64,000 nt of DNA from Terrimicrobiaceae bacterium (lineage in GTDB: Bacteria > Verrucomicrobiota > Verrucomicrobiia > Chthoniobacterales > Terrimicrobiaceae), in the NCBI GenBank assembly GCA_044375335.1, contig JBILMW010000002.1, positions 59 to 64,058 of the forward strand. The letters run 5' to 3'. The stretch's first letter is position 1, and each line of letters starts with the position of its first letter. Shown here piece after piece: positions 9,681 to 63,609 of the stretch. The notes beneath the pieces are model-generated. The model was not told where the DNA came from. It saw only the letters and a list, made by a program, of their open reading frames with translations, and made no database searches. A program made the position numbers and the translations under genes.

Positions 9681-9681
9681 C

Positions 9682-10851: not shown

Positions 10852-10901
10852 CAAACTACTTTTATGCTTAGCTGAAATTCCTATCGAAAAAAACTTTTGA
10901 A

Positions 10902-12050
10902 ATGATTGATATCGTATATGAGAGGCAATGGTCATCGCTAAGCAATTTAGTGCAGGTCCTGATCAACTTGAATAAAATGGGAACCCTATATGGGGGCTTT
11001 CCAAAATGGCGCTACATAAACGCTGGAATACCAAGGGAAATTTTACAAACAAATCCAACCGCAAGTCTTGCGAATTTTGTAATCTCAAAAATCGGTTTGC
11101 CTGCATCACTTATGTTGGATGAACCGAAGATAATAGGAAACTGGGTGGCAAAATTTAGCGATTTGTCTGAAACTTTAATTGTCAATGGAACGGCGTATCG
11201 TATTTTATTTCCAAAACTTAAGGACTCAGCTCGAAAACTCATTCTGGAAAGAGGTTCAATGCATCCATGTGAGTTTTTTAGATTGAACCAGAAAGCCCGA
11301 AAAGAAGCAGGCTATTCTTATACAGATAAGATACCTGTGCCGATACTGGATGAAATCGAGAAGACTTCGCTAGCTGACTTTATTATTGCGGGCAGTCAAA
11401 TGGTGCGCCAGTCCTATGTAGACCATGGTTATCCAGTGAACCGAATTTTTGACTGCAGCTATGGAATTGATGCAGAAAAATATTCATATATTCAAAGAAA
11501 AATTCCAAAGGCTCGGCCAATAAAAATAGGAATTATGGGCGTTGTGGGATTTAGAAAAGGGCTTCTGCGACTTTTAAAAATAGGCTCTTGGGCTCGCAGA
11601 AAAGGTTACAATGTAGAAATTCATTTTGCCGGTCCGATTAGTGATATTGAAGCGCATGACCTTCTACAAAAGACTGACGCTAAATATTACCTTCACGGAG
11701 TTCTTAAGGGGAGCGCTCAAATTCAATTCCTTGAAAATTGTGATCTCTACGCGATTCCTTCGTATGAGGAAGGATTACCTTTTTCATTGCTTGAGGCAAT
11801 GAGCACAGGTTTATTAGCAATAGTAAGTAATGACACCGGTGCCCGCGAAGTTGTCGAACATAATAGAAGCGGGTTTATCTTGCAATCGTTCTCCGACGAT
11901 GAATTTGACAGTATTTTACAGCCTCTCTTCAGTTCACCTGAAAGAATAATAAATATGGGAAAGTATGCCAGAAAAAGAATTACTAGCGAGTATTCTTATC
12001 AGAATTATTTTTCTCGTATTAACCATGCATTAAATTTTATGAATGTGTAG
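10902..12050 (+). CDS. GT4 glycosyltransferase
   Basis: YEEGLPFSLLEAMSTGLLAIVSNDTGAREVVEHNRSGFIL signature. AT-rich gene. Confidence 0.8.
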   Translation: MIDIVYERQWSSLSNLVQVLINLNKMGTLYGGFPKWRYINAGIPREILQTNPTASLANFVISKIGLPASLMLDEPKIIGNWVAKFSDLSETLIVNGTAYRILFPKLKDSARKLILERGSMHPCEFFRLNQKARKEAGYSYTDKIPVPILDEIEKTSLADFIIAGSQMVRQSYVDHGYPVNRIFDCSYGIDAEKYSYIQRKIPKARPIKIGIMGVVGFRKGLLRLLKIGSWARRKGYNVEIHFAGPISDIEAHDLLQKTDAKYYLHGVLKGSAQIQFLENCDLYAIPSYEEGLPFSLLEAMSTGLLAIVSNDTGAREVVEHNRSGFILQSFSDDEFDSILQPLFSSPERIINMGKYARKRITSEYSYQNYFSRINHALNFMNV

Positions 12051-12065
12051 CAAATCATTGATTTT

Positions 12066-12752
12066 ATGAGATTCTTAAAGATGCTAATAAAAAAATGTAT
12101 TTATCAATACTATGGACTAATGCCAGAAATCAAAATTCCGTATGAAACTGTTAATCCAGGGGAGCAGGCATGGTATTTCAAAAAAGGCTCTTTAACTCAG
12201 AATTCCATCGTATACTCTTTCGGTTTAGCAGATAATATAGTTTTTGACATTAATATAATAAAAAGTTACAATGTAAATGTTTTCGGGTTTGACCCAACCC
12301 CATCATCAATTAAGTTTATTTCCAGTTTGGAAATTCCTAAGCAATTTTATCACTTCCCATTAGCGATTGCAGACTATGATGGCGAGCTAGATTTTATTAT
12401 ACCAAGGGATTCTAATATATCTGGATTTTCGAAAAATCTACACAAAAATAGCCAAGATGAATTTACAGAAATTAAAGTATCGTGCTGTAGTTTATCATCA
12501 ATAATGAACAAGCTCGGGCATGACAAAATAGATCTCCTAAAAATGGATATAGAAGGGATGGAATACAAAGTTATTGATCAATTAGTTTCGGAACATCTTG
12601 ATATTAAACAAATCTTGGTTGAATTTCACCATAGATTTTCAGGAATTGGTTTACGCAACACGCTTTTAGCAGTTCAAAAACTGAGAAATTCAGGGTTCAA
12701 GCTTTTTCATGTTTCACCTTGGTGTGAGGAATATGCATTCATTAAAGAATAA
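12066..12752 (+). CDS. FkbM-family methyltransferase
   Basis: VYSFGLADN..., FGFDP and IDLLKMDIEGMEYKVI motifs are characteristic of FkbM-type methyltransferases. Confidence 0.8.
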   Translation: MRFLKMLIKKCIYQYYGLMPEIKIPYETVNPGEQAWYFKKGSLTQNSIVYSFGLADNIVFDINIIKSYNVNVFGFDPTPSSIKFISSLEIPKQFYHFPLAIADYDGELDFIIPRDSNISGFSKNLHKNSQDEFTEIKVSCCSLSSIMNKLGHDKIDLLKMDIEGMEYKVIDQLVSEHLDIKQILVEFHHRFSGIGLRNTLLAVQKLRNSGFKLFHVSPWCEEYAFIKE

Positions 12753-13920
12753 AATAAAGGTTGTAATGACCGTTGCTTGCGCTAATGACCTCAGTGGCGC
12801 GTCAATGCGAGATTTAACGCGCGCATCTCCCGTAGTGCATCCTGCTATAGATAACTTATTAGAAGGATTATCAGAATGTCCTGAATTGGATATTGAGGTT
12901 GTATTTGGTAAAAAATATATCAACGCAAATGATTGTCGAAAGGAGGGGAATATTTTATATACACCCGTATTTTATACTCCTCTTCCCTTCCCAGGTATGG
13001 GTTGGTCTTACCTTGCAAGGTATCAGGCAATCAAAAAATATTTAAAGTCTGTTAAGCCAGATATAGTCCATGCACAAGGCACTGAGAGAGAGTCTGGTAT
13101 CGTTGCTGCTTTTTCAAAATCTCCATCATTGCTAACCCTTCATGGAAATTTTCGGGAAATTTCTAAAATTCTTCCATCTCCATTAATAAGCTACAACACT
13201 GTTAATGCTTGGCTCGAATCAATTGCAATCAAAAAGTGCACTTCTATCCTTTGTATTTCAAAATATACAGAAGCATCTGTAAAATCTCTCAACAAAAATA
13301 CTCATCTCTTACCAAACGCTGTCTCCAGTGTTTTTTTTAACGTTGTTAAAAAAACAGTTCCCGGCAGAGTCGTTTGTGTAGCGTCTATTTCAAGAAGAAA
13401 AAATCAAATCTCTCTTTTAAAATCTTGCGATCAAATAGCGGCGCTAATACCAAACTTTAATTTGCATTTTTGGGGAGATTGTAACACTTCCGATCCGTAT
13501 GCTGTAGATTTTTTACAGCAAATTAAAAGTCGAAACTGGGCTCAATATTGCGGAATTTCTTCATCAACGCAGATGCAAAATATTCTTGCCGAGGCCGAGT
13601 TGATGGTGCTGCCATCAATCGAAGATAATTGTCCAGTTGCTTTACTTGAGGCGATGGCTGCAAGTCTACCAATCCTGGCCACATCTGTCGGTGGGATTCC
13701 GGATTTAATTAAAGAAGGGGTGAATGGATTTTTAGTAAAGCCCGCAGAAATGGACAAAATGGCTCAGCATTTTTTCAGTCTTTTGAGTTCGGATTCAATA
13801 GCAACCGAAATGGGATTAAGATCTAGAGAAATAGCTAAAAAATGCTATTCCCCAGAATATATTGCGCAAAAACATCTTAAAATTTATTGTGATCTTGCTG
13901 GCAAGTCGTTTTTTAAATAG
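12733..13920 (+). CDS. GT4 glycosyltransferase
   Basis: IEDNCPVALLEAMAASLPILATSVGGIPDLIKEGVNGFLV signature. Start taken at ATG 12733 (MHSLKNKIKVVM). The 3' end overlaps the convergent gene by 37 nt. Confidence 0.8.
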   Translation: MHSLKNKIKVVMTVACANDLSGASMRDLTRASPVVHPAIDNLLEGLSECPELDIEVVFGKKYINANDCRKEGNILYTPVFYTPLPFPGMGWSYLARYQAIKKYLKSVKPDIVHAQGTERESGIVAAFSKSPSLLTLHGNFREISKILPSPLISYNTVNAWLESIAIKKCTSILCISKYTEASVKSLNKNTHLLPNAVSSVFFNVVKKTVPGRVVCVASISRRKNQISLLKSCDQIAALIPNFNLHFWGDCNTSDPYAVDFLQQIKSRNWAQYCGISSSTQMQNILAEAELMVLPSIEDNCPVALLEAMAASLPILATSVGGIPDLIKEGVNGFLVKPAEMDKMAQHFFSLLSSDSIATEMGLRSREIAKKCYSPEYIAQKHLKIYCDLAGKSFFK

Positions 13921-20789: not shown

Positions 20790-21818
20790 ATGTTGAAACA
20801 ACTCAAACAAGCCCTTCGCGATATCGGCGTTGGATTTTTTCGGCTCATCGGCTCCGAAATTCGCGACTGCCGAACGGGCAAGCCGCTCGGACGGGGTTTG
20901 ATTTTTTATTGGGGCGGGCGAGTGCATTTGTTGGGCTGCGATTGCGCCGTCGTGCCGCTGCCCATAGCTCAGAAGCGTCTGACCTATTGGAAGCAATTGA
21001 TTGGCTTTACAGCTCATCCGGAGGTAGATTTTCCAAAACAGCACGCAGTTTCGGCTGACGAGCCAGACAAAGTCCTTCTCGTGCTCCTCGATCATCGCGA
21101 TCCGGCATCAGTCAAAAAAACCATTTCTCTTTGGAAAAAAGCGGGTTTTGAGAGCGAGAATGTGCTCTTAGCTTATGGTGGAGGGCGGGATTCCTTCGAC
21201 AAAATCACCCACCCCAACAAATTTCTTCTCACCGAGTCAAGGCATAGAACATCGGACCATCAGCGGGAGAGGCAAGGCTATCGTGAGATTTTTTTACGCG
21301 TCAGTGAATGGCTGCCTAGCCGCTCTTTCACGCACATCCTTTTTCAGGAATACGACCACCTCCCGATGATTGCCGATTTACCTGCACGCATGCTGCGCTG
21401 CCTCGCTGCGGAAAACGCGGACATTCTCGCATACCACTTGGGACGGGTGGATGCCTCTACGAACCCGCATTGGCTGTCCACGGTCTCTGAGACCTACGAC
21501 CAACCGGTAGCGCTATCCATGCTTGGAACCGGCCACTTTTGGACACGCCAGGCTTGGGAGGCCGTTTCAGCGGATGGTGTGCTTGCAAGTTGGTATTTGG
21601 AGCTTGACATTCCCACCACGGCGCATCGCTTGAGCTACAGGATCAGAGAAATTCCATCGCAGGGCAGATTCGTCCAAAATCTGGTCTCGAACCGCCCCTC
21701 GCCTTATGATGCACAAAAACATGGAGCTTGGACACTTCACCCTGTAAAAGACCCCACTACCTTCGCAATCGTAGAAAAGCACTTGAACACTCAACCCGTT
21801 AATTCCAATTGTGGATAG
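20790..21818 (+). CDS. hypothetical protein (342 aa)
   Basis: Long ORF preceded by the same leader motif as glf (CTGTCTAAAAAATG). The 3' end overlaps the exosortase start by 8 nt. No family recognised. Confidence 0.55.
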   Translation: MLKQLKQALRDIGVGFFRLIGSEIRDCRTGKPLGRGLIFYWGGRVHLLGCDCAVVPLPIAQKRLTYWKQLIGFTAHPEVDFPKQHAVSADEPDKVLLVLLDHRDPASVKKTISLWKKAGFESENVLLAYGGGRDSFDKITHPNKFLLTESRHRTSDHQRERQGYREIFLRVSEWLPSRSFTHILFQEYDHLPMIADLPARMLRCLAAENADILAYHLGRVDASTNPHWLSTVSETYDQPVALSMLGTGHFWTRQAWEAVSADGVLASWYLELDIPTTAHRLSYRIREIPSQGRFVQNLVSNRPSPYDAQKHGAWTLHPVKDPTTFAIVEKHLNTQPVNSNCG

Positions 21819-22878
21819 TTACATGTCGCAAATGCGATCACATGCCTCAGATCGTCAGCTCATCGCGCTGGCGATAGCTTGGCTTGTGCCTTTTTTACTT
21901 TTTGCCTTCATCCCTTATTCCCAAGGCTATGGAGAAGTTCCCGAGTCGGCGTTCAAGCAATTTTTAAACATCTCCAAAAGCAGCGGAGACTGGGGGCATT
22001 GCTTGTTCGTTTTTCCCGTGGCGGTCCTTATCTTCATCCACACTATCCACCAAAAACCCCTACCGACGCCATCGTCTTCTTGGCTTGGTTTTGTTTCGGT
22101 TATTACAGCGTTTGCCTGCTTTTGGGCGGGGCAGCGTATGGGCACCCACTTCATCGGATTCTTTGCCTTTCAAGGAATGGTGATCGGAACAATTTGGTTT
22201 CTGATGGGTTGGAGAACGGTTTTATTTTTTGGCTTTCCGCTGATCTTCCTTGCTTTTGCCTGGCCGGTGCCGTTTCTGGACAACTACATCGCCTTTCCCC
22301 TCCGCATGCTGATGTCGCATGCGGCGGTTTTTTCGTTGGATTTCATTGGTATCGATGTGGTGAGGAATGGCACGGGTATCCTTTCGGCGCCGGAGCCGTT
22401 GCTGGGGATTCCGGCGGGGAAAAAGTTTGCAGTGGATGTGGCGGATCCGTGTTCTGGCATTAGGTCGCTTTTTTCGCTGATGATGGCGAGTGCGCTTTAC
22501 GGCCATATGGCGATGAAAAATTGGTGGCAGAAATGGATTCTTTTCCTGTGCTCGGCACCGCTAGCCATTGCGGGAAATCTGGCGCGGATTCTCATGCTGA
22601 CGATTGGCACGATTGTGTTCGGGTCGGAGTTTGCCATTGGCAAAAATCCTCTCACCGATCCTTCATGGTTCCATGTTATTGCGGGTTTGCTTGTCTTCGC
22701 CGTGGCCTTGGGCGGGATGGTTGGCATTTCCAAAATCCTGCTGAACGCCTCATACATTCGGGAATTCCTGACGCAAGGCATGAGATCGCTCTTTCGGCAA
22801 CGGACTCCCGCTACCGCGCTACGGCCCCCTCCACCGCCTTCGAGATCCATGCAAAAAAAGACCGAGGACGACTACTGA
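21811..22878 (+). CDS. exosortase (EpsH/Xrt family)
   Basis: Polytopic membrane protein with the hallmark DPCSGIRSL (catalytic Cys) and AGNLARI (Asn/Arg) motifs of exosortases/archaeosortases. Start is GTG 21811 or ATG 21823. Confidence 0.8.
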   Translation: MDSYMSQMRSHASDRQLIALAIAWLVPFLLFAFIPYSQGYGEVPESAFKQFLNISKSSGDWGHCLFVFPVAVLIFIHTIHQKPLPTPSSSWLGFVSVITAFACFWAGQRMGTHFIGFFAFQGMVIGTIWFLMGWRTVLFFGFPLIFLAFAWPVPFLDNYIAFPLRMLMSHAAVFSLDFIGIDVVRNGTGILSAPEPLLGIPAGKKFAVDVADPCSGIRSLFSLMMASALYGHMAMKNWWQKWILFLCSAPLAIAGNLARILMLTIGTIVFGSEFAIGKNPLTDPSWFHVIAGLLVFAVALGGMVGISKILLNASYIREFLTQGMRSLFRQRTPATALRPPPPPSRSMQKKTEDDY

Positions 22879-49676: not shown

Positions 49677-49750
<74 letters not shown>

Positions 49751-52109: not shown

Positions 52110-53885
52110 TTATCGCTTTCCTTTGGACTTACCGGTCAGCAAGGCGGCGGCTTTGGAATTCTTGGAAATGAATTTACTGAACTTGGACAGATTGATTTTT
52201 CCACTAGGCGATTTCACTCCAGCCGGAGCCAACTTGACGGCTTTGGCCAAGTTGGATTTTGACACACCCAAGATTGTTGCGACATCGCTTGCGCTTCTTG
52301 AAGCTGGAGAGCCTTGAGCCAACGCAGCTTGGATTTTCATGTTGAGTAGGCTTCTGACTGCGCCTGCTGTTGAGGCATCGGAGAGTGATGTGTTTGTCGA
52401 CGAAATCGGTTTTTGAGAACTCACCGTGAGGGGCTTCAGGGCGCTACCAAATTTTTCTGGATTATCCTTGGGATTAAAACCGGCGATTTTCGCATCCGAG
52501 GTCGCAACATAGACGAAATTCTTGTAGCCAGTGACAAAACCCCCGTTCGGTGCGCTGGTCGAGGGATTAGTATTGTTCCATGTTCCAATATACGGAACAA
52601 ATGGTCCTTCTTGCTGATACGCAGTATTGGTCTTGGCGATGGGGCCAATACTATACCACTGGTCTCCGTTCGGTTTGTTGGCGTAAAACCAGATTTGATC
52701 ATCCTTAATTAAAACACCAAAAGTCACAAAGTCCGAAGTAGGCGCCCCGCCAACCACTGACCAGTCCGCAGCTTTCTGGTTTACCCCATCCTGCCCATTT
52801 ACTGGACTCTGCAACCAGCCCGTTGCGTTTCCATTTGGAAGATTTACTTGGGGTCCGGGAGGAGTGCTCGTTGTTGCGCCATAGCCGTTCCAGCTTGTTT
52901 CCATAATATCAATCTCTCTGCCGTATCCCCCTGCCCCCCCTGCAGCACTGCCATCCAAATAACCACTCACTCCGGGATACAAGTCTTTTCGCTCAGCGAG
53001 ATAGAATGTTTCACAAAATGTCTGCGCTCCGCCAACCAATGTGTTGAGGGTGCCGTTAGACCCGATTTTGATATCGATTTGCCAGCAGCCATCATAAGCC
53101 ACGCCGGTTCCATCGGTGGCGCTCCATTCGCCTGTTGTTGAATTTTGCGTTAATTGGACTGCATAAGCCCTGCTTCCGGAACCATATCCTTTAATATTTT
53201 TCGTGGATTGCCAGATGGCACCATCCTCTGCATACCACCGATAATCATCAGGTTCTGAGGTGTTTGGTGTAAAATCCATACCATAATCGATCCCCCAGAA
53301 ATTCAACCCGGAGACCCCGATCGCTTCGGAGTTGCCCAGTCCATTCGACCACCCGGCGTTCGAAATCACTGCTGGCCCCAGATTAAAGCTGGCAGGATAG
53401 ATACTTAAATCATACCACCAACGCTCATCCCATGCACTACTACCAGACGTGCTTTTGGATGCATTGTAAGTAAATTGAAGAGTTGCTCCCTGGAGATAAG
53501 TGGAATTTCCACTAAAATTTCCAGAAGAATACGGATAATTCTGCCCAGATGCAATCCCTGGAGGGGGCACATCGCCAGAGGTTACATACTTTGTTTTTGC
53601 GGTAATGCTTCCCAATGGAGTCCCGTTCGCAGCCCAAATATTCATGTTTAATGAATTGAATATAACATAACCCCAACTAGCACCTGAACTCGGAACGAGT
53701 ATTGTCCCGACGGGGGGATTTAACGCCTGACTAGAACCAGAGTTAGAATAAGGAACCCCGCCGGTCACCTCCAAGGCAAAGCCATAGTCCTCCGCAATAC
53801 CCCATTGCATAATGCAAGGGTTGTCATCTGCTCGAACAATGGAGGAAAGGATCAGCGTAGTTAATAAGGTGCTTAAGAATTTCAT
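52110..53885 (-). CDS. secreted protein with possible GH16/ConA-like glucanase core and shared C-terminal basic HTH-like module
   Basis: Signal peptide MKFLSTLLTTLILSSIVRA. GREIDIMETSW contains the ExDxxE core of GH16-type catalytic motifs (only a partial match to the full signature). The last 76 aa are homologous to the tails of 53927..55078 and 55959..57419. Confidence 0.6.
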   Translation of the reverse strand: MKFLSTLLTTLILSSIVRADDNPCIMQWGIAEDYGFALEVTGGVPYSNSGSSQALNPPVGTILVPSSGASWGYVIFNSLNMNIWAANGTPLGSITAKTKYVTSGDVPPPGIASGQNYPYSSGNFSGNSTYLQGATLQFTYNASKSTSGSSAWDERWWYDLSIYPASFNLGPAVISNAGWSNGLGNSEAIGVSGLNFWGIDYGMDFTPNTSEPDDYRWYAEDGAIWQSTKNIKGYGSGSRAYAVQLTQNSTTGEWSATDGTGVAYDGCWQIDIKIGSNGTLNTLVGGAQTFCETFYLAERKDLYPGVSGYLDGSAAGGAGGYGREIDIMETSWNGYGATTSTPPGPQVNLPNGNATGWLQSPVNGQDGVNQKAADWSVVGGAPTSDFVTFGVLIKDDQIWFYANKPNGDQWYSIGPIAKTNTAYQQEGPFVPYIGTWNNTNPSTSAPNGGFVTGYKNFVYVATSDAKIAGFNPKDNPEKFGSALKPLTVSSQKPISSTNTSLSDASTAGAVRSLLNMKIQAALAQGSPASRSASDVATILGVSKSNLAKAVKLAPAGVKSPSGKINLSKFSKFISKNSKAAALLTGKSKGKR

Positions 53886-53926
53886 ATTTATAATTTAAAT
53901 GTTTTGAAATGAGTTTTAACTTGAAT

Positions 53927-55078
53927 TTACTGCTTTTTATTTCGTTTTTTTGAGGTTTTACCTTCTAACAGGGCGGTATTTTTTGAGTTTTTCAAAAAGA
54001 ATTTATTGAGTTTGGAGAGACTAATTTTTCCGTTGGATGATTTGACTCCGGCTGGCGCTAATTTTAGGGCCTTGGACAAGTAGGATTTTGACACGCCCAA
54101 AATGGACGCTATGTCGCCCGCGCTCCGTGTATTTGCAGAACCTTGCGCCAGCGCGTTTTGGATTTTGCTACTATAGTCCGAACCCACCATAGGCCTTACC
54201 GGCAACACGGATGGGGTGGAGCTTTCTTCATCCAACATGCTTTGCGTTGGGAAATACTGCTGGTAGTAACTGTAGTTAACCTGTCCTTCGGAACTATTAC
54301 TGATGTCTGTTGCAACCTGCTGTGGGATGGCAGTCCAGTAGGCAGGCATAAGTGCCGCCAATTCCGGATTGAGCGTGTAAATCAAACAAAAGTTGACGAT
54401 CCAGAGCGGAGGGATCATCGACATTCCGACTTTCACGGAAGAGCTATCGGTCAGGTTGTAAGATACCAACTGCGCTTTGCCTGAACTATTTTGTGATAGG
54501 ACACTGTAAACAGCTTCCGTTGTGTAGGCTAAACTGTAGAGATTTTCAAGCGATTTTGTGGCACCATTTGCCTTGCACCAAGTCTCCATCCAGCCTCCTG
54601 GAGCAAGAATTTCGTTGACAGTCCGGCAAGGAGAAGTCTCCTGTGCACAGCTTTCCAACAATCCATCCTCATTGACGGTTAATCCATAGCTTCCGAGGAC
54701 AATGGTGGTTGCATTGCCGTTTATGTTGCGAACGATAGGATTTTGTTTTGTGTTTGTCAGGATGAGGGTTGCATCTGCGATCATCAATGCATTAGTCAAA
54801 TTACCTCCGTAACCACCGCCGGTAATGAAGGTAAAAAACTGTATTGGTGTGAAACATTTGTCTTTCTGCAGTCCAAACGCTTGAGCCAGTTCGTCAGCCT
54901 TAGTTTGGCCGATTGGCTGATTGATCTTTCGAGTGTCTGTCGACTCAACCCGAGTCGGAGCATAGCGCTCGTATATTTTTGATCCACAATACGGTTCAGC
55001 AAAATATCCTTGTCCAAACAAGGCTGTGTTCCCCGCGAATGCCAACGCTAAGGAAAGTGTAAAAGTGATTTTATTCAT
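53927..55078 (-). CDS. secreted protein of unknown family with shared C-terminal basic HTH-like module
   Basis: Signal peptide MNKITFTLSLALAFAGNTALFG. The N-terminal roughly 270 aa are paralogous to 55126..55962. The last 80 aa carry the shared module. Confidence 0.7.
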   Translation of the reverse strand: MNKITFTLSLALAFAGNTALFGQGYFAEPYCGSKIYERYAPTRVESTDTRKINQPIGQTKADELAQAFGLQKDKCFTPIQFFTFITGGGYGGNLTNALMIADATLILTNTKQNPIVRNINGNATTIVLGSYGLTVNEDGLLESCAQETSPCRTVNEILAPGGWMETWCKANGATKSLENLYSLAYTTEAVYSVLSQNSSGKAQLVSYNLTDSSSVKVGMSMIPPLWIVNFCLIYTLNPELAALMPAYWTAIPQQVATDISNSSEGQVNYSYYQQYFPTQSMLDEESSTPSVLPVRPMVGSDYSSKIQNALAQGSANTRSAGDIASILGVSKSYLSKALKLAPAGVKSSNGKISLSKLNKFFLKNSKNTALLEGKTSKKRNKKQ

Positions 55079-55125
55079 GATCCGGGACTTTGATTGGTTA
55101 TTCGGAAATCTTCTTCTGATCGATT

Positions 55126-55962
55126 TTACTGCTCAAGATATTGTTTAAAATCACTGTAGTTTAACTGTCCCGTGGGACTTGCCATGAGAGCTTCTTTAAC
55201 TGGTGTCGGTATGGGCGTCCAATAAGCGGGCATGAGTGCTGCTAAATCGGGATCCAACACATAGACCGCAATAAAATTAACGATCCAAATCGGAGGAATC
55301 ATCGACATTCCCACATAAGCAGACGCGGCACCCGACTTGTATTCAACCAACTCAGCATTTTTCTCGGCGATGATTTGGGATATGCTTCCATAAATAACCC
55401 CGTCTCTCAGAGCCTTGGATGCCCAGAACATGATCATGGAATCTTCAGCACCATTTGCCTTAAACCAAGTTGGTAAATAGCCGCCAGGTGCCAGAAGTTC
55501 ATTGGCTTTTCTGCATGGTGAAGAGTCTTGTGCGAGGCTTTGAAGTTTTCCATCCTCATTCACCATAAGACCATAACTACCCAGCACAATTGGCGTTGGA
55601 ACGCCGTTGATATTGCAAATGATGGGATTATCCTTCGAGTTGATAAACCAATTCGTTGCTTGGTTCAAAATGAGAGTCTCTGTCATATTGCCTCCGACTC
55701 CGCTCCCTGAGATTAATTGAAGAAACTTCATCGAGCTGAGGCATTTTCTTTTTTCAATTCCGAAGATTTTAGCGAGTTCATCAGCTCTTTCCCTTCCGAT
55801 ACCTTCGTGGAGCTTTGGGCTCGATGCATCGATGGGGGTTGGCGTGTATTTCTCCCATTCCTTTTCTCCGCAATAAGGCTCTGAAAAACCTTGGCTATAT
55901 GATGTGGCGCTGAGCGCCAAGAGGACAGCTAAAAAAGCCCGTGAATGCTGCGTTTTTTTCAT
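55126..55962 (-). CDS. secreted protein of unknown family (paralogue of 53927..55078 lacking the C-terminal module)
   Basis: Signal peptide. Conserved blocks EPYCG.K..E.Y.PT, IVLGSYGL.VNEDG, VGMSMIPP.WIVNF and LAALMPAYWT.IP are shared with the downstream paralogue. The ATG overlaps the upstream stop (ATGA). Confidence 0.7.
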   Translation of the reverse strand: MKKTQHSRAFLAVLLALSATSYSQGFSEPYCGEKEWEKYTPTPIDASSPKLHEGIGRERADELAKIFGIEKRKCLSSMKFLQLISGSGVGGNMTETLILNQATNWFINSKDNPIICNINGVPTPIVLGSYGLMVNEDGKLQSLAQDSSPCRKANELLAPGGYLPTWFKANGAEDSMIMFWASKALRDGVIYGSISQIIAEKNAELVEYKSGAASAYVGMSMIPPIWIVNFIAVYVLDPDLAALMPAYWTPIPTPVKEALMASPTGQLNYSDFKQYLEQ

Positions 55963-57419
55963 TGTTTTGATTTTTTCTTATTCTTTTCTCCAGAAGATTT
56001 GTTCCCGCTTCCGCTGAGCTTCGACTTTCCCGACAGGATGCCGGCGGCCTTCGAGTTTTTGGAAAGGAATTGACTGAGCTTGGAGATGTTAATTTTTCCT
56101 TTGGATGATTTGATTCCTGCCGGGGCCAATTTCAGGGCTTTGGACAAGTTGGATTTGGATACACCCAAGATGGCTGCGACATCACCCGTGCTTCGTGATG
56201 TGGCGGAGCCTTGTGCCAAAGCGGTCTGGATTTTGCTTTTGACGAGGTATTTCACCTCCTCGACGGACTGAGCTGCCAAGATCGAATCGGATGTCTTCGA
56301 ATGAGAGGGCGTTCCATCGGAGGAATTTGAGTTTGTTCCACTTTCGGCGCTGACATTGTTTACGTTCAATAACTGCTTGTTGCCATTCGGATTGCTAGCT
56401 TTTTTGACAGCGTAGGCCGTGCCGCTAGCTAAGATCGGGTTAACGGGTGTGGCAGACCCAACAGAATACCAGTTCGCGCCGGATTTATAGTATGTGCCTG
56501 ACGCTCTGATATCTGAATCACCCACGAACAGTAAATCTCTCAACGATCCAGAAGTGGAAGGGGCGAAATTTTCATCATTAAGTCCAATATCTGAAATGAG
56601 ATACGAAGAAGCTCGCGGCAGCACAAAGAGCGTTTTCAAATCCTCGGTAGGGGAGGAATAAAGCGTAATGCGAAATGGGGTTTTTAGGACAGTGCCGGCG
56701 AAATAGGCATCGATGGAGAAACTCCCGATACCTGTGTTTTGCATGTAGAGGTAGCGGCCCGGTGGCACTGGCACTCCACCAGCAGATACAGTCGGCTCGG
56801 ACTCACTGGCCCAGTTCTTCAAGGAGTGGCTGAAGTAAAACTTTTGCCCTTGGTTCTGTGGTATTTGGGCACCTGATACTGTGACTGGGCTGAGAATCAG
56901 CTTGGTCATGATGTTTTCCGTATTCCTGGTTGGAATGAACGCCGCACCGGCTCCGCTGGCTGGGAAAAGGGTCTCGAGCGTCCAATACGGCCGAACATCG
57001 ATGGATGTAATATTTACGGAGGACAGGGTTTCGCCTTGGGTATCAATGACGATTTGGGAGGCCGTGTTTGAGATCACGCTGTAAAAAGCCCCCGTCGACG
57101 AACCAGCTGTTACTAGAGCGTAATAAACTGGATAAACCTTCTTGTTGTATGCATCTGCCAAGACCGGTGCGTTGTATGCATCGAGCGGCGGGTTGCCGGC
57201 TAATAGGAGCGTTGTTGAATTTCCAGATGTCGAGACACTTGAGATGGAGAGCAGCGCAACCGACGGTTGCTGAAACTCTGGTGCGATGACGGCCGTCTCT
57301 TGTGCAGCTACGGCGATATACTGTTGACCGCCAGTCACCCCAGAAATCCCCGACTCTTGATCAAAGGCTATGGCAACCAGTTGAAAGCCTGCGAGGAGGG
57401 CGAAAAAAGATTTCTTCAT
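55959..57419 (-). CDS. secreted protein of unknown family with shared C-terminal basic HTH-like module
   Basis: Signal peptide MKKSFFALLAGFQLVAIA. The motif VRPYWTLETLFP recalls a secreted PVC-group protein family (from memory, unverified). The last 92 aa carry the shared module plus a long Lys/Ser tail. Confidence 0.7.
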   Translation of the reverse strand: MKKSFFALLAGFQLVAIAFDQESGISGVTGGQQYIAVAAQETAVIAPEFQQPSVALLSISSVSTSGNSTTLLLAGNPPLDAYNAPVLADAYNKKVYPVYYALVTAGSSTGAFYSVISNTASQIVIDTQGETLSSVNITSIDVRPYWTLETLFPASGAGAAFIPTRNTENIMTKLILSPVTVSGAQIPQNQGQKFYFSHSLKNWASESEPTVSAGGVPVPPGRYLYMQNTGIGSFSIDAYFAGTVLKTPFRITLYSSPTEDLKTLFVLPRASSYLISDIGLNDENFAPSTSGSLRDLLFVGDSDIRASGTYYKSGANWYSVGSATPVNPILASGTAYAVKKASNPNGNKQLLNVNNVSAESGTNSNSSDGTPSHSKTSDSILAAQSVEEVKYLVKSKIQTALAQGSATSRSTGDVAAILGVSKSNLSKALKLAPAGIKSSKGKINISKLSQFLSKNSKAAGILSGKSKLSGSGNKSSGEKNKKKSKQ

Positions 57420-57434
57420 AAGTTGTGGTTTCTT

Positions 57435-59696
57435 TTAGGCCCTAACCGAAGTGGGTTCTGATGCGTTTTCATCTGCCTTGGGGAACCAAGCCAATCGATA
57501 GAAGGCTTTATGGTCAGTGACAGCAGAAGTTACCCATACAGGGCCATTGTTGCCAATAATTGGAGACATAACCGTGCCGTCTGAATTCTTCGCAGGTCTC
57601 CAAGTCTTTTGGTCCGTTGAAGTTTGCAACTGGTATTGGGTGTTTGAACGGGAGAGCCAAGTGATCTGCAGTTCGTTTTTGATCAACCCAGAATCCCTAT
57701 ACTCGAAATGCTGCACTTGGAAATCCTCCGGCGGCACGGCTGGACGCTGATTCAGAGGCGTGAGTTTCGTATCAATCGCCGCTTTCAATTTCGCCTCCAT
57801 TTCAGTGCGTTTGGCCACGAGTTCAGGCGTGGCTTTTTTATCGCCACTCTTGTTCTCTGCCCACTCCGAGTAGTTCGTGTATTCCGCGGCCTTCCCGGTT
57901 GTGCCGGTCAAGCCATTATCCTGATCCGTATCAGTGCCGCCATTTGCTTTGCTGCGAAGATCATAGAACTCGCTTTGTGGAGCCTGAACGCCATTTCCGT
58001 CGAAGTAATAAGCGTATTTGTAATCCTTCTCGATCAAAGTGCGGAGGCGATTAGGCGGGTTGACGAGTCCGTTGGGATTGCTCGATTCTTCCTGTCCGCA
58101 GTAGATATCATCGAATGTGAAAAGAATGGAATCCTGAACGGCCGGACCGGCGGGATTGCTCATCAACCGACTATAATCCACGCCTCTTAAATCATAACCG
58201 GCGGTATTAATTCCAACCAGCGAACAGAGTGTTGGAAGAAAATCCACATGCGAAACGAGTTGATCGCAGACTTGGCCGGTTGGAAAGTCGACGGGGTTCG
58301 ACCAAACCAAAGGAATATTCAGCACTTCCTCATAGCACATGAAGGATTTCTGACGCAGTCCACCATGTGTCATGGCGCCATCGCCGTGATCGGAGGAGAA
58401 AATGGTCCACGAATTATCCCTAAGATTTCTGGCCTTGTCAGGATCGACGCCGTCAGCTTCACCGTCCAACAAATCCAAAAGCTTAGACAGTTTGCGGTCG
58501 TTCATCTTCATCAAATTCCCGTAGAAATTCAGGTATTTCAGCTTTTTTGTATCATCATTTACCAAGCCAAGGCCGAGGCTTTTCACCTTAAATTCCTCTT
58601 GGCAGGTGGGCTTCAAGTTTACAAGCAACTTTTCATCTGCTGTTGGTGGAACTTTGATCCTCAAATCCTTGCCATCTGCTTCAATGGGTCCCGTATGTTC
58701 TGACCATGGAGATTCTGAGTAAGGGTGAACGCCAGAGCCTATGTTGCCTGTGTAATAACCATCATAACTCCAATAACCGCCTTCGATATAAGTTCCATTT
58801 CCACCATCTGCCACGGAAATGCCAGGGCATCCCAGAACATCGTGGGGATTGATCAAGCAGATCATGAGGCAAAAGGGATTTCCACCCGGATTGGCAATTT
58901 TTTCTTTGAGGAAAGCATAGGCGCTTTCAAGTTCCGCTTCCGGATTTGGAGTGCCTTCCGCTTGAGTAAAAATTAATTCGGGATTAGCTAAAAACTGCTC
59001 CTTGGAGGGACCAGTCTCCTTGACCCAAGTAGATCCATCAAAATATCTTCCATCATTATCCGGATTGCCGCCGCCGTAATTGGGCATTTTGGCATCGCCA
59101 CCCGCATCGGGGGAGTTCCATTTATTCATTCCGTAGCGTGCGATGTCATCCGAGGTGGAAGAGTCATCGGGGTTATCGACGCCCTTGCTCATATGCCACT
59201 TGCCTTTCCAGACGACATCGTATCCCGCCGCCTTGAAAATGGTGCCTATGTTTGGAAGGGTCGGGTCGAGCTGGTGCTCTTGCATGGACTGGCTCATCCC
59301 CTCAGAGAGCGTATCGAAATTCCTGTGCTGTGCCGGGTAGAGACCGGTGAAGAGAGTCGTGCGGGCGGGGGTGCACATGGCTGTGTTTGTGTAAGCGCGG
59401 GTGAAAGACACGCCCTTGTTTCTGAGGCGGGTCAGACCGGGCAGGTTGGCCGCCTCCCATCCTTCTGGAAACCAGCGGAGATTCTGTTGCTGGTCTGTGG
59501 TGAAGAAAATAATATTGCGGCGTTGGCCGATGGCTTCAGCGGCTTCCGCTGCGGATGGCCAGAGATTGACAGCGCCTTGAACCGCCATGAGCGCACCGGC
59601 ACCGCCGACCATTCTTAAAAAGTCGCGGCGCTTGACTTGATCAAAGAGCGGCTTGGTTTTTTCGGTCTCGATGCTGGGTGGCTGGTCGTTGATCAT
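57435..59696 (-). CDS. Tat-signal formylglycine-dependent sulfatase with C-terminal extension
   Basis: Twin-arginine signal KRRDFLRMVGGAGALMAV. Sulfatase N-terminus IIFFTTDQQ. Formylglycine motif CTPARTTLFTG (CxPxR) and SDHGD. 753 aa, so about 200 extra C-terminal residues. Confidence 0.85.
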   Translation of the reverse strand: MINDQPPSIETEKTKPLFDQVKRRDFLRMVGGAGALMAVQGAVNLWPSAAEAAEAIGQRRNIIFFTTDQQQNLRWFPEGWEAANLPGLTRLRNKGVSFTRAYTNTAMCTPARTTLFTGLYPAQHRNFDTLSEGMSQSMQEHQLDPTLPNIGTIFKAAGYDVVWKGKWHMSKGVDNPDDSSTSDDIARYGMNKWNSPDAGGDAKMPNYGGGNPDNDGRYFDGSTWVKETGPSKEQFLANPELIFTQAEGTPNPEAELESAYAFLKEKIANPGGNPFCLMICLINPHDVLGCPGISVADGGNGTYIEGGYWSYDGYYTGNIGSGVHPYSESPWSEHTGPIEADGKDLRIKVPPTADEKLLVNLKPTCQEEFKVKSLGLGLVNDDTKKLKYLNFYGNLMKMNDRKLSKLLDLLDGEADGVDPDKARNLRDNSWTIFSSDHGDGAMTHGGLRQKSFMCYEEVLNIPLVWSNPVDFPTGQVCDQLVSHVDFLPTLCSLVGINTAGYDLRGVDYSRLMSNPAGPAVQDSILFTFDDIYCGQEESSNPNGLVNPPNRLRTLIEKDYKYAYYFDGNGVQAPQSEFYDLRSKANGGTDTDQDNGLTGTTGKAAEYTNYSEWAENKSGDKKATPELVAKRTEMEAKLKAAIDTKLTPLNQRPAVPPEDFQVQHFEYRDSGLIKNELQITWLSRSNTQYQLQTSTDQKTWRPAKNSDGTVMSPIIGNNGPVWVTSAVTDHKAFYRLAWFPKADENASEPTSVRA

Positions 59697-59896
59697 AGTC
59701 GCTTGATTTTCTATTCGTGTAATCTGGAAAAAACTTCGGAAGGTAGATCTCTGTGCTGGAAGAACATTGTTCCTACGGTCTTTTCCCCATGGAGCATAGG
59801 TAAACTCTATGAAAGCGGCCGAAAAGTCGGTGAATCAGGCAATCGCAAAAAACCTTTTTGCGATAACCTGATGCACTTGTAGAATCTGGTCTCGCT

Positions 59897-61141
59897 TTGA
59901 ATACGCAATCGCCCATTTCCAAGAACTTCCATGTGATGGCCAAGCCCATTGGCCCGATCTGCAATCTCGATTGCACTTACTGCTATTACCTTGAAAAGGA
60001 ATCCCTTTATCCCAAGGGTGAGGATTTTCGCATGAAACCCGATGTGCTGGAGGCATATATCCAGCAATACATCGAATCCCAAAATACCTTTGAGGTGACC
60101 TTTGCCTGGCAAGGCGGCGAGCCCACATTGCTGGGGTTGGACTACTTCCGCAAAATCGTGGAGTTGCAAAAAAAATACGCCCATGGTCGTGCCATCAATA
60201 ACACGCTTCAGACGAATGGAACCCTGCTCAACGACGCATGGTGCCAATTTTTTGCCGAGAATAAATTTCTGATTGGGCTCAGCATCGATGGTCCTCGTCG
60301 CCTCCACGACACATATCGTGTGGACAAGGGCCAGAAGCCAACCTTCGACCGTGTCATGCAGGGATTGGAACTGCTTAAAAAACATCGCGTCGAATTCAAC
60401 ACGCTCACCGTCGTGAGTGCCACCAATGCGAAACATGCCATCGATGTCTATGACTTCCTGCGCGAGGTGGGATCCGGCTATATCCAATTCATTCCGCTTG
60501 TGGAGCGGCTGCCAGCGCCTGGCGAGAAATCCACGGGCCTCGATTACGCCGAGCCACCGGAGCCGGGCCAGGCGGAATCTCCCGTCACGCGCTGGAGTGT
60601 CCCCAGCGAGATGTATGGCGAGTTTCTGATTTCCATCTTTGATGCCTGGGTGCGGCGGGATGTGGGCAAGGTTTTCGTGCAAATGTTCGATGTCTCCCTC
60701 GGCATCTGGTCCGGCCATGGCCCGGGTCTCTGCTTGTTTCTCCAAGATTGTGGAGAAGGCCTCGCGCTCGAACACAATGGAGATTTGTTCTCCTGCGACC
60801 ACTTTGTTTATCCCAAATTCCAATTGGGAAATATCATGAACAAGTCGATCGCCAGCATGGTGAATTCGGCCAAACAAAAACAATTCGGCGAGGCCAAATC
60901 CTCGACGCTGCCGAAATTTTGCCGCGAGTGCGATGTGCGATTCGCCTGCCATGGCGAGTGCCCGAAACACCGCTTCACAAAGACTCCAGACGGGGAAGAT
61001 GGTTTAAATTACCTCTGCTCTTCTTACAAAAAATTCTTCCATCATGTGGACCCCTACATGAAGCAGATGACCGCATTCATGCGGGCCCGGCAGGCTCCGG
61101 CGAACATCATGAATATGGATTTTGATGCTTTGAAAAAGTAG
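59897..61141 (+). CDS. anaerobic sulfatase-maturating enzyme (radical SAM/SPASM)
   Basis: HVMAKPIGPICNLDCTYCYY (CxxxCxxC) and C-terminal Cys clusters CRECDVRFACHGECPKHR (SPASM). Divergent from the sulfatase operon. TTG start 59897 (alternative ATG 59936). Confidence 0.85.
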   Translation: MNTQSPISKNFHVMAKPIGPICNLDCTYCYYLEKESLYPKGEDFRMKPDVLEAYIQQYIESQNTFEVTFAWQGGEPTLLGLDYFRKIVELQKKYAHGRAINNTLQTNGTLLNDAWCQFFAENKFLIGLSIDGPRRLHDTYRVDKGQKPTFDRVMQGLELLKKHRVEFNTLTVVSATNAKHAIDVYDFLREVGSGYIQFIPLVERLPAPGEKSTGLDYAEPPEPGQAESPVTRWSVPSEMYGEFLISIFDAWVRRDVGKVFVQMFDVSLGIWSGHGPGLCLFLQDCGEGLALEHNGDLFSCDHFVYPKFQLGNIMNKSIASMVNSAKQKQFGEAKSSTLPKFCRECDVRFACHGECPKHRFTKTPDGEDGLNYLCSSYKKFFHHVDPYMKQMTAFMRARQAPANIMNMDFDALKK

Positions 61142-61193: not shown

Positions 61194-61904
61194 CTACCGG
61201 TCGTGGACGATCTCGTCGATGTCTTTTTGAATATCGGCCTGAAGTCGATTTGACTGTAGCTTGGCGCGCAATCCCTCACGAATTCTTTGCTGAGCAGCGG
61301 GATCTTGTCTCACCAGAATCAAGTAATCTTCCAAGGTGGATAGGGCACTGAAGCGCACATCCTCGGAGGAATCCTCCAAAGCGCCCAGAAGGGTATCGAT
61401 GGTCGATACCGAGGGCTTGCCCAATGTGGAGAGGCCGAGCGCGGCGGCGCCTCTGATTTTCGGGTTTTCTTGGCTCTTGAGATATCCCACCAGGATGAGC
61501 TCATTCACCGGGCTTGGGTAGGCCCCTAAAAGTTTCAGACCCTCGATGCGTTGATGTTCATTGGTAGAGGCGAGGAGTTGCTGAGCGCGCGCGAGTTCGC
61601 TTTTCTCTGGCGCATCCTCGACTACAGGGCTTGGCTTTCGAGGGGCGGATAACATCTCCGGTGCAGGTGGCCGGTGGTTTTCGATGGGCGGGTGCCCTGT
61701 CGAGCTGCGTGCGTGTTCTTTTTTTTGCGGTGCCTCTTGACTCGGAGGGTGAAGTGCCAAGCGAAGGATACCCCCCAGAAGCAAGACGACAATAACTCCC
61801 AGGCCTAAAATGGGCTTGGATACACTACTCACAGGATTTTTGATAGGGGCCTGAGGCATTCCAAAGCAAGTTCGGATTAGGTCTTCCTCAAATTTTGCCT
61901 CCAA
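61194..61904 (-). CDS. membrane-anchored HEAT-repeat protein
   Basis: One TM segment (ILGLGVIVVLLLGGILRL), a Pro-rich linker, then HEAT-like repeats (NPKIRGAAALGLSTLG; SEDVRFSALSTL). Start uncertain (61904 TTG or 61859 ATG). Confidence 0.55.
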   Translation of the reverse strand: MEAKFEEDLIRTCFGMPQAPIKNPVSSVSKPILGLGVIVVLLLGGILRLALHPPSQEAPQKKEHARSSTGHPPIENHRPPAPEMLSAPRKPSPVVEDAPEKSELARAQQLLASTNEHQRIEGLKLLGAYPSPVNELILVGYLKSQENPKIRGAAALGLSTLGKPSVSTIDTLLGALEDSSEDVRFSALSTLEDYLILVRQDPAAQQRIREGLRAKLQSNRLQADIQKDIDEIVHDR

Positions 61905-61953: not shown

Positions 61954-63609
61954 TCAGATTTTCTTGGCGTTGTATTTTTTAACCCAGTTCTTGGATTTTT
62001 TGGAAACCGTTTGCTTTGATCCCCCGTTGGCTTTCTTGTTGGAGGCGAGCTTGTTTTTTACTGTGCCCTTCTTCGGTTTTTGGACTTGAGACACATCAGA
62101 ACTTGTTGCGCCGCTGTTTGCTGTCGTTGCAGGCGCAGTGGCTATCAGTCCGCCCCACCAATCACTCGCATTTTCCTCAGATGCTATCGGAATGGAGGGA
62201 TTTACTATTGGACCATGCTGGCCTACCACAGCAGGCGGGACATATGTGCCATTCAGAGAGGATCCCAGCGGTCCATAAACACGCAACATCACGGAGAAGC
62301 GACCGGCAGGAATCGGCAGGACATTCGGCCCCACACTTGTTTCTGCATCGCCAATGGTTTTTAAAGTGATTGTTATGGACCCGTTGCCATTTTTTACAAG
62401 GCCGGGCGTGTAAGAAGCTACAGCATATTTGTTAGCGGCATTTGGAACGAGTTCAATCGCATCACTCGTATACGCGGTGATTGACCAGAATCTCTTGTAT
62501 TGAGGCAATTGATCCGCTTCGAAAGTAATGGTATAAGTCTTGTTTCCCGCACCTGTGAGCATGTCACTATGGTTGTCCAAGAAAGCTTGTGCGTAGTAAG
62601 CGGCCTTTTTGGTGTTGCCGTATTGGATAAATAAATTGCCGGACGAGCGATCGGTATAGTCCTCGCCCCAATTTCCCATGTTATTAAAGTGGACCCAGTT
62701 GTTGCCAATTGTATGGAAGTGCCAATTCGCAAGAATTTCATCATGGGCCGCTCTTACTCCAGCGCAGAAATCCGAAAGACTTGAGATAGAGCCTCCAAGC
62801 GCCTCCGCCTTGGCCGCAAAAAATTTCTCTTTAAAGATGTTTATCAGGGTCTTATCGCTATCGGAAAGTGGAGTCGTCGATGAGTTCTCCATAGCCGCTT
62901 GTAGAAGATCGAGAAACGCCTTGGGTTCGGTCTGGGCGAGCAAATCCACGGCTGTTTTCATTGGGGTATCGAAATGGTCTTCGATGGGAAGTATTTGGGT
63001 TTCTCCACCTGATATCGGATTGGAAAGCCAAGCGCTGAGCGATTGCAGTCTTGTAGCTCTCCTGAAGGTTTCCGCTGCGGTTTGAGTGTCAATGTATGTG
63101 GTTCCATTGAGGGTATATCTGTCAGTGCGAATCGCTAATTGCGTCCAATTTTGAGGAACTTGAATCTTTATAACGCCCGAAGGAAGTTCACCCGAATAGT
63201 TAGGTCCAACCAGCGCATAGGTTCCCCCAGCAATCGTCGGCTCAAGTTCAGTCGATAGAATCGTCCCGAAAACATCCACTTGAACAATCGAATAAGAATA
63301 TTGGTAAGCTGGAATGGTCAGAATCTGTGGCTCGTCCGTAAGATTCAGTGTTGCCGATGTGTAGAGCGTATCGACATTGATCGCAACGACAGCCTTGTAA
63401 GACGGACTCATCGGATTTTCTGGTCCTATGAGGGTATTCTTGAGCCCATTGGGCGCAATCTGGCTGGCATAAGTCTGGAATCTCGGGAGGTAACGAATGG
63501 TATAGTTGTAGGCTGTAACGAAATCCGCTCTGCTGGCGAGGGCTAATTCTGGCGTTGCCAATGCGCAGATGGTCAACGCAAGAAGGCTGAGGGTTTTTTG
63601 CAGTTTCAT
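61954..63609 (-). CDS. secreted DUF1254/DUF1214-like protein with Lys-rich C-terminal tail
   Basis: Signal peptide MKLQKTLSLLALTICALATPELALA. ..AYNYTIRYLPRFQTY.. and ..YKRFWSITAYTSD.. resemble DUF1254 and DUF1214 blocks. Tail is KPKKGTVKNKLASNKKANGGSKQTVSKKSKNWVKKYNAKKI. Confidence 0.6.
   Translation of the reverse strand: MKLQKTLSLLALTICALATPELALASRADFVTAYNYTIRYLPRFQTYASQIAPNGLKNTLIGPENPMSPSYKAVVAINVDTLYTSATLNLTDEPQILTIPAYQYSYSIVQVDVFGTILSTELEPTIAGGTYALVGPNYSGELPSGVIKIQVPQNWTQLAIRTDRYTLNGTTYIDTQTAAETFRRATRLQSLSAWLSNPISGGETQILPIEDHFDTPMKTAVDLLAQTEPKAFLDLLQAAMENSSTTPLSDSDKTLINIFKEKFFAAKAEALGGSISSLSDFCAGVRAAHDEILANWHFHTIGNNWVHFNNMGNWGEDYTDRSSGNLFIQYGNTKKAAYYAQAFLDNHSDMLTGAGNKTYTITFEADQLPQYKRFWSITAYTSDAIELVPNAANKYAVASYTPGLVKNGNGSITITLKTIGDAETSVGPNVLPIPAGRFSVMLRVYGPLGSSLNGTYVPPAVVGQHGPIVNPSIPIASEENASDWWGGLIATAPATTANSGATSSDVSQVQKPKKGTVKNKLASNKKANGGSKQTVSKKSKNWVKKYNAKKI

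Follow-up and report, generated by a model that had tools for sequence, protein, structure and literature searches.

We analyzed a 64,000-nt stretch of DNA from a Terrimicrobiaceae bacterium (GenBank assembly GCA_044375335.1, contig JBILMW010000002.1), hereafter called the window, and focused on a sulfatase locus within it (Table 1). The locus contains a sulfatase gene (A), followed on the same strand by four genes (B, C, D and E), and a divergent neighbor that encodes an anaerobic sulfatase-maturating enzyme (anSME). When the open reading frames were recomputed, their coordinates agreed with those of the original prediction, as did the spacing of the string: A and B are separated by 15 nt, B and C overlap by 4 nt, and gaps of 47 nt and 41 nt lie between C and D and between D and E, respectively. 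The starts of the sulfatase A and anSME genes are 200 nt apart. B, C, D and E all open with Sec-type signal peptides, as read from their sequences, and the tight same-strand string of exported proteins that had been described behind sulfatase A is indeed present. The DNA runs that contain the stretch are lake and freshwater metagenomes, no RNA run contains it, and the nearest named record is a lake metagenome-assembled genome (MAG) labeled Chthoniobacter flavus, with ~84% nucleotide identity across the whole locus.

Table 1. Features of the sulfatase locus and its immediate neighbors in the window
Feature	Position in window	Strand	Description
Sulfatase A	57435-59696	-	753 aa; Tat-exported Cys-type S1 sulfatase
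B	55959-57419	-	486 aa; exported TIGR02597-family protein
C	55126-55962	-	278 aa; exported; untagged paralogue of the D N-domain
D	53927-55078	-	383 aa; exported; family N-domain, Ser/Thr/Pro-rich linker and cationic module
E	52110-53885	-	591 aa; exported; predicted GH16-like core, Ser/Thr-rich linker and cationic module
anSME	59897-61141	+	414 aa; radical SAM/SPASM; divergent from sulfatase A
Module copy in B	55962-56234	-	residues 396-486; cationic C-terminal module
Module copy in D	53930-54166	-	cationic C-terminal module
Module copy in E	52113-52337	-	cationic C-terminal module
Predicted GH16-like core of E	52476-53318	-	~residues 190-470
EIDIME motif of E	52899-52916	-	residues 324-329
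Divergent intergenic region, sulfatase A/anSME	59697-59896		200 bp; holds an inverted repeat
Inverted repeat	59844-59862		CGCAAAAAGGTTTTTTGCG
G, HEAT-repeat protein	61194-61904	-	236 aa; HEAT_2 at 2.2e-15; convergent with anSME
H, exported DUF1254/DUF1214 protein	61954-63609	-	551 aa; Pfam matches

The assignment of the divergent gene as an anSME was borne out, since its product scored 520 bits against the equivalog model NF010308 (cut-off 484) and 519 bits against a second one, TIGR03942 (cut-off 349). The protein contains the Radical_SAM (PF04055) and SPASM (PF13186) domains, and its CNLDCTYC motif fits the radical SAM pattern CxxxCxxC. The reading of A as a formylglycine sulfatase exported by the twin-arginine translocation (Tat) pathway also held: the protein matched PF00884 at 8e-32, with the CTPAR motif starting at residue 108 and RRDF at residue 23, and the Tat-signal model TIGR01409 scored 19.8 bits (cut-off 16.7). 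When eight sulfatases (orthologues and paralogues) were aligned, RRDF, C108-T-P-x-R, D68/Q69, K166/H168, D436/H437 and K450 were invariant. Sulfatase A therefore has the domain, the C/S-x-P-x-R motif and the metal and catalytic residues of the S1 formylglycine-dependent sulfatases. It also has a long internal insert and a conserved ~90-aa C-terminal beta domain that ends in FYRLAW (FYRL.W across the aligned sulfatases). The protein is far from every solved sulfatase. The nearest (an unclassified arylsulfatase, an S1_30A enzyme, a glycosaminoglycan 2-O-sulfatase and others) matched in split stretches with E values of 1e-16 to 1e-12, and the best match (~1e-16) covered two such stretches.

The original prediction held that all four partner families were unrecognized. 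For B this did not stand, as the protein scored 85 bits against the TIGR02597 model (cut-off 50), and its Prosthecobacter orthologue scored 91.5 bits. TIGR02597 is an NCBIfam 'paralog' model of unknown function, and our literature search found no paper that mentions the family or its pairing with a sulfatase. A profile search of the B family against the PDB sequences returned nothing useful, and a Pfam scan of all members of the B alignment at E values up to 5 returned only noise.

For a survey of the locus in other genomes, B-family genes were taken at decreasing similarity and their neighborhoods were compared. This gave 14 distinct related loci (L001, L005, L010, L012, L014-L021, L041 and L042), whose sources span Chthoniobacter-like lake MAGs, Prosthecobacter and Brevifollis. 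In the window and in all 14, one or two genes for sulfatases of 680-753 aa are immediately followed by B, with a sulfatase-to-B gap of 15-34 nt in the loci with called genes. Wherever the flanking sequence of a related locus was long enough, an anSME gene adjoins the sulfatase/B pair. The three core genes occur in divergent, co-directional and convergent arrangements; in the Verrucomicrobiaceae, Brevifollis and Prosthecobacter loci, anSME is co-directional or convergent, and the Brevifollis locus L016 has a single sulfatase. Because the same gene content is kept in three arrangements and in two orders, there is strong evidence from gene neighborhoods that anSME, the sulfatase and B would work together in these bacteria.

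Table 2. Gene order and sulfatase identity in the window and in related loci
Locus	Sulfatase identity to A	Gene order
Window, L001, L014, L005	89-100%	A-B(module)-C-D(module)-E(module)
L010	86%	A-B(module)-GH8-like(module)-sulfotransferase
L041	81%	A-B(no module)-GH8-like
L042, L043	75%	A-B(no module), then ~1 kb without a gene
Verrucomicrobiaceae, Brevifollis and Prosthecobacter MAGs	62% and 47% (two paralogues)	anSME, usually two tandem sulfatases, B(no module)

The same survey did not uphold the view of the four partners as one conserved set, since only B was syntenic with the sulfatase across the related genomes. C, D and E were limited to relatives whose sulfatase is at least ~89% identical to A, and they were replaced or absent in the sister loci (Table 2). 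The slot after B therefore varies, holding C-D-E in the near relatives only, a GH8-like gene with a sulfotransferase gene in L010, a GH8-like gene alone in L041, and nothing in L042 and L043. In L010 and L011, a cytoplasmic-type sulfotransferase gene lies directly behind the gene for a GH8-like enzyme that carries the cationic module described below (here called a GH8-module gene); no sulfotransferase was found when one was looked for in the 64-kb window. In another locus, L026, positions 2909-3091 hold a 60-aa remnant of an E-like gene (the signal peptide and first strands), flanked by a GH18-like gene of 690 aa on one side and by a GH8-module gene on the other, and the remnant is therefore direct evidence of gene replacement in such loci. 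The gene string of L005 stops beside an insertion sequence-like fragment in another neighborhood, near a nadE-like NAD synthase gene. Since this flank differs from that of the window, the position of the locus varies among close relatives.

C and the N-domain of D are paralogues with ~50% identity. Neither C nor D matched a Pfam or NCBIfam model, and at least 184 relatives, mostly of 280-300 aa, were found in Verrucomicrobia, Planctomycetes and Actinobacteria. The predicted structure of D had a predicted local distance difference test score (pLDDT) of 85 overall and above 90 over most of the N-domain. No fold in the PDB matched this N-domain (best E value, 0.45), and a profile search of the C/D family against the PDB sequences gave nothing useful.

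For E, the original prediction had noted the ExDxxE motif EIDIME as a hint of a fold like that of glycoside hydrolase (GH) family 16. The AlphaFold model makes this stronger than a hint: the core of E is predicted to be a GH16-like beta-jelly-roll (pLDDT 85), with the motif on a predicted beta strand. In an alignment of 42 sequences, E324, I325, D326 and E329 were invariant, and so was a group of aromatic and acidic residues. The top Foldseek matches in the PDB were GH16 laminarinases, EG16 and GH16_3 O-glycanases (E values of 1.6e-6 to 1e-4), and the next were legume lectins and PL7 alginate lyases, which belong to the same jelly-roll class. On the sequence level, PF00722 was absent, and no solved GH16 enzyme was found among the PDB sequences with either a profile or a fragment. 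E is thus predicted to be GH16-like by its modeled fold and motif without being a member of GH16 by sequence, and it is a probable glycoside hydrolase (a retaining glycanase) with an ExDxxE catalytic strand. The earlier statement that the partners are not classical GH or SusCD genes was correct for SusCD; for the glycoside hydrolases it needs amending, since the predicted fold and the invariant motif place a probable one in the locus.

More than 100 relatives of E were found, and most of them are 410-445 aa long and lack the cationic module. One of them, in Cysteiniphilum, stands alone among housekeeping genes with no sulfatase nearby. Another, a 562-aa homologue, is found at positions 8001-9689 of L040, a 211-kb metagenome contig, again with no sulfatase nearby. 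Its neighbors there (PIF1 helicase, DUF285, MutS, NFACT, zf-MYND and RNA_pol_N) are typical of giant-virus or eukaryote-like contigs, and the GH16-like family therefore extends beyond bacteria.

B, D and E share a C-terminal module of 75-91 aa that was not listed in the original prediction. The three copies are the only ones in the window. Their consensus is KIQxALAQGS..RS..D.A.ILGVSKSNLSKALKLAPAGVKS..GKINLSK..KF.SKNSKAA.LL.GKSK, followed by a Lys-rich tail. The module has a net charge of +14 to +17 and an isoelectric point (pI) of ~11, while the preceding cargo parts have a pI of 4.4-5.3. Identity between the copies was 0.78-0.87 at codon positions 1 and 2 and 0.50-0.56 at position 3. Recent gene conversion or copying was rejected as the source of the similarity, given this low third-position identity, and the pattern points to selection on the protein as what has kept the module alike.

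A profile search of 1.84 billion representative proteins gave 21 matches to the module, of which ~18 were real; a tandem helix-turn-helix (HTH) protein was among the 21 (E value, 1e-4). P0137, a 5333-aa acidic repeat protein, was set aside as a compositional artefact. The module is carried by GH8-like enzymes (PF01270), by a choice-of-anchor-I/He_PIG protein, and by proteins of the B, D and E types. All the carriers but one (on a contig labeled marine) come from lake or freshwater metagenomes, and the module is restricted to a clade of lake Verrucomicrobia. B orthologues outside the closest sub-lineage are without the module.

The AlphaFold models of D and E gave the module an identical fold, consisting of a helix, a helix-turn-helix, a hairpin and two helices, with pLDDT of 83-93. 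Foldseek matched it to the winged helices of Rex, IclR and BusR with probabilities of 0.6-0.84 and a root mean square deviation of 2-3 A over ~60 columns, at E values above 1. No HTH family model reached its cut-off for the copies in the window (best 15.8 bits, cut-off 27); the sub-threshold matches came from many families and all fell over the stretch ILGVSKSxLSK. The C-terminal domain of P0131, a distant relative from a metagenome, scored 22.3 bits against HTH_5 (cut-off 22). Neither a PEP motif nor a hydrophobic or transmembrane helix is present in the module. PEP-CTERM sorting and sorting of the type IX secretion system (T9SS) type were both rejected for it, as the motifs are missing and the predicted fold is helical instead of a beta sandwich. 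A literature search for lysine-rich C-terminal anchors returned nothing relevant.

The two genes beyond anSME, G and H, stay beside it in the Chthoniobacter-like clade, with G orthologues in the same position in L010, L014, L041 and L042. H ends in a Ser/Thr linker of ~90 aa plus a Lys-rich tail (residues ~460-551), and its last 50 residues contain 15 Lys/Arg and 1 Asp/Glu. In L041 and L042, the H orthologue (451-463 aa) stops at ..PPVVT and lacks the tail that is present in the window and in L014. The genomes with the tail are thus those of the sub-lineage whose B protein carries the module. That the unrelated proteins B and H gained polycationic ends together argues for charge as the selected property of these ends.

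At position 52000, the G+C content in 1-kb windows drops from ~0.58-0.61 to 0.44-0.54, a level that continues to the window's end. It is lowest within the locus in C, D and E (0.41-0.47), is ~0.50-0.53 in the core genes, and is ~0.58 in the flanking genome. A tRNA-Pro(TGG) gene is located at 49677-49750, 2.3 kb ahead of the drop. In a consensus scan of the stretch, sites resembling promoters or terminators were not in excess, and the short gaps between the genes contained none. The inverted repeat between sulfatase A and anSME (Table 1) is retained in L001 and L014 and degraded in L010, as seen in an alignment of the spacers. Since its conservation is limited to close relatives, the repeat was rejected as evidence of an operator.

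Elsewhere in the window, positions 1158-22878 hold an exopolysaccharide (EPS)/O-antigen-type cluster with WecG, a family 2 glycosyltransferase (GT2), several GT4 enzymes, a Wzx-like flippase, a Wzy-like polymerase, methyltransferases and a UDP-galactopyranose mutase. The G+C content of the cluster is mostly low (0.36-0.49), and the cluster includes an exosortase gene, EpsH, at 21811-22878. Beside the sister locus in L010, positions 9396-13008 hold a proteusin-type cluster for a ribosomally synthesized and posttranslationally modified peptide, with two PoyD-like radical SAM epimerases, an NHLP-leader precursor and methyltransferases beyond.

Taken together, the results suggest, at a probability of about 0.5, that the locus is a desulfation and depolymerization kit for an anionic, probably sulfated glycan, with a tail that tethers the enzymes to a polyanion. 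We hold with similar confidence that the locus has two layers, a conserved core and a variable slot after B, and that it belongs to an uncultured Chthoniobacter-like lake Verrucomicrobium. It is known that anSME converts a Cys or Ser of sulfatases to formylglycine. Here, the cytoplasmic anSME would act on Cys108 in the CTPAR motif of sulfatase A, and the folded sulfatase would then be exported via Tat. B could be an accessory subunit of the sulfatase that binds or positions the substrate. The slot after B would supply a depolymerase matched to the local substrate; it contains C, D and E in the window, of which E is the probable glycanase, and a GH8-like enzyme or nothing in the sister loci. 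The cationic module and tails may hold the otherwise acidic enzymes on a polyanion, which could be the substrate itself or an anionic cell-surface layer, and such tethering would make desulfation and chain cleavage occur together. The genes of the string may be co-transcribed, and the substrate class is likely an anionic or sulfated glycan. The link to a sulfated polymer made in the original prediction is plausible in view of the recurrent glycanase-type neighbors (GH16-like E, and the GH8-like enzymes in L010 and L041) and the sulfotransferase in L010.

Several observations weigh against this proposal. No transporter, SusCD-like or TonB-dependent receptor gene adjoins the locus. The C/D and E families are without sulfatase association in the loci examined elsewhere, and several GH8-module genes stand without a sulfatase or B on short contigs, which reach 1-3 kb on either side. 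E matches no GH16 sequence model, and a Pfam scan of 42 family members at E values up to 5 gave only noise. The G+C content of C, D and E is below that of the core and of the flanking genome, and they may therefore be recent arrivals that share only the location. The module also resembles a DNA-binding fold, and its ligand could be DNA and not a glycan.

It is conceivable, although somewhat unlikely in our judgment, that only anSME, the sulfatase and B form a functional unit, and that C, D and E are unrelated accessories in a recombination-prone slot. Such a slot would account for the presence of C, D and E in the closest relatives only, with GH8-like genes instead in L010 and L041 and nothing in L042 and L043, for the occurrence of the C/D and E families away from sulfatases, for the G+C content of the three genes, and for the turnover marked by the E-like remnant upstream of the GH8-module gene in L026. 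However, the core gene B shares its module with D and E in precisely the lineage where they occur, and the core is therefore tied to the slot genes. The slot is also filled repeatedly by glycanase-type genes (GH16-like or GH8-like), and the genes are tightly spaced on one strand. A different possibility, to which we give little credence, is that the locus remodels the sulfated or acidic exopolymer of the cell itself by trimming, turnover or release, with the cationic ends anchored to the capsule, and does not act on foreign glycans. The sulfotransferase gene behind the GH8-module gene in L010 and L011, the presence of a large EPS/O-antigen cluster, which includes an exosortase, 30 kb from the locus, and the lack of uptake genes beside the locus are consistent with such a role. 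However, the 64-kb window contains no sulfotransferase, the EPS cluster is not adjacent, and freshwater Verrucomicrobia rich in sulfatases are usually interpreted as degraders (PMC5615132).

Two further explanations concern the module. That it is an export or sorting signal read by machinery of its own, comparable to T9SS C-terminal domains or PEP-CTERM, would fit its strictly C-terminal position behind a flexible linker, its presence on unrelated Sec-exported cargos within one clade, and the exosortase in the window. We consider this improbable, because the PEP motif and transmembrane helix are missing, the models show a helical fold, none of the loci seen has a conserved processing or transport gene beside its module-bearing genes, and H has a Lys-rich tail without a folded core, which points to charge as the selected property. 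Alternatively, the module may be a true DNA-binding winged helix that ties the exoenzymes to extracellular DNA in aggregates or biofilm, independent of any sulfated glycan. The consistent sub-threshold matches to many HTH families over ILGVSKSxLSK, the tandem-HTH protein retrieved in an unbiased search and the fold matches to Rex, IclR and BusR suggest a relationship of this kind; yet no HTH model reaches its cut-off for the copies in the window, the E values of the fold matches are nonsignificant, and the cargos are glycan-active enzymes and a sulfatase partner with no nuclease among them, so that DNA appears an unlikely ligand to us.

Some parts of the proposed desulfation and depolymerization locus belong to kinds already known, namely the anSME/sulfatase pair and the sulfatase-plus-glycanase neighborhood. 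Known anSME/sulfatase pairs include AtsB/AtsA of Klebsiella, the anSME of Bacteroides thetaiotaomicron with its sulfatases, and anSMEcpe of Clostridium perfringens. As in these pairs, a radical SAM/SPASM maturase is found beside a C/S-x-P-x-R sulfatase in which all the catalytic residues are kept. Unlike in these pairs, the sulfatase is 680-753 aa long, contains a large insert, has a C-terminal beta domain specific to its family, and is always accompanied by a TIGR02597-family gene. An exported sulfatase beside exported glycanase-type genes is a feature shared with the sulfated-glycan utilization loci of Bacteroidota and the Planctomycetes-Verrucomicrobia-Chlamydiae group and with the sulfatase/GH neighborhoods of freshwater Verrucomicrobia (PMC5615132), which have already been described as sulfatase- and GH-rich polysaccharide degraders (PMC5615132). 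In contrast to the utilization loci, the present locus has no SusCD, TonB-dependent receptor or regulator genes. SusC/SusD-like and TonB-dependent uptake genes were absent from both the flanking genes and the related loci, and the locus is thus not a SusCD-type polysaccharide utilization locus. Its glycanase slot is also variable, and the glycanases in that slot belong to a new predicted GH16-like family or are GH8-like with the cationic module.

The individual proteins likewise depart from their nearest known counterparts. B and its orthologues pass the cut-off of the TIGR02597 model, but in the present subfamily the gene always follows a sulfatase gene, and in one sub-lineage the protein has acquired the cationic module. 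E shares with GH16 enzymes (laminarinases, EG16 and the GH16_3 O-glycanases) the predicted jelly-roll and the E-x-D-x-x-E motif on a beta strand, but differs in an extra N-terminal beta domain and large insertions, and its TM-scores relative to the targets are 0.4-0.6. For the module, a functional analogue may be found in the GW modules of Listeria InlB, which are noncovalent cationic surface anchors that bind lipoteichoic acid and heparan sulfate. In both cases, a strongly basic C-terminal module could hold a secreted protein on an anionic polymer. The resemblance is limited to this function, since the present module is predicted to be helical and winged-helix-like while the GW modules are SH3-like, and its host is a diderm.

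New in this locus are the constant association of a TIGR02597 protein with a long Tat sulfatase, the predicted GH16-like family that lies outside GH16, the C/D family, which is confidently modeled and has no match among the solved structures, and the predicted winged-helix-like cationic module. As a tentative and possible extension, the long Tat sulfatase and the TIGR02597 protein could form an obligate, Verrucomicrobiota-specific two-protein system in which the partner provides substrate recognition, and the module could be a new extracellular polyanion-binding domain recruited from a DNA-binding winged helix. If both parts of this extension were to hold, a clade of lake Verrucomicrobia might use the module to pin a set of exoenzymes (the sulfatase partner, the GH16-like and GH8-like enzymes, and the choice-of-anchor-I proteins) to acidic or sulfated polymers or to the surface of the cells themselves.

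In freshwater, Verrucomicrobia are abundant as degraders of polymers from algae and cyanobacteria, but to our knowledge hardly any of their sulfatases has been matched to a substrate or partner. The locus offers testable items in this respect: a three-gene unit, a GH16-like family with a clear motif, the C/D family and a compact cationic module. If the proposed tethering is true, the module would be a useful tag for immobilizing enzymes on anionic matrices. In the bacteria themselves, the module may explain how free-living cells keep their secreted enzymes on target instead of losing them to the water.

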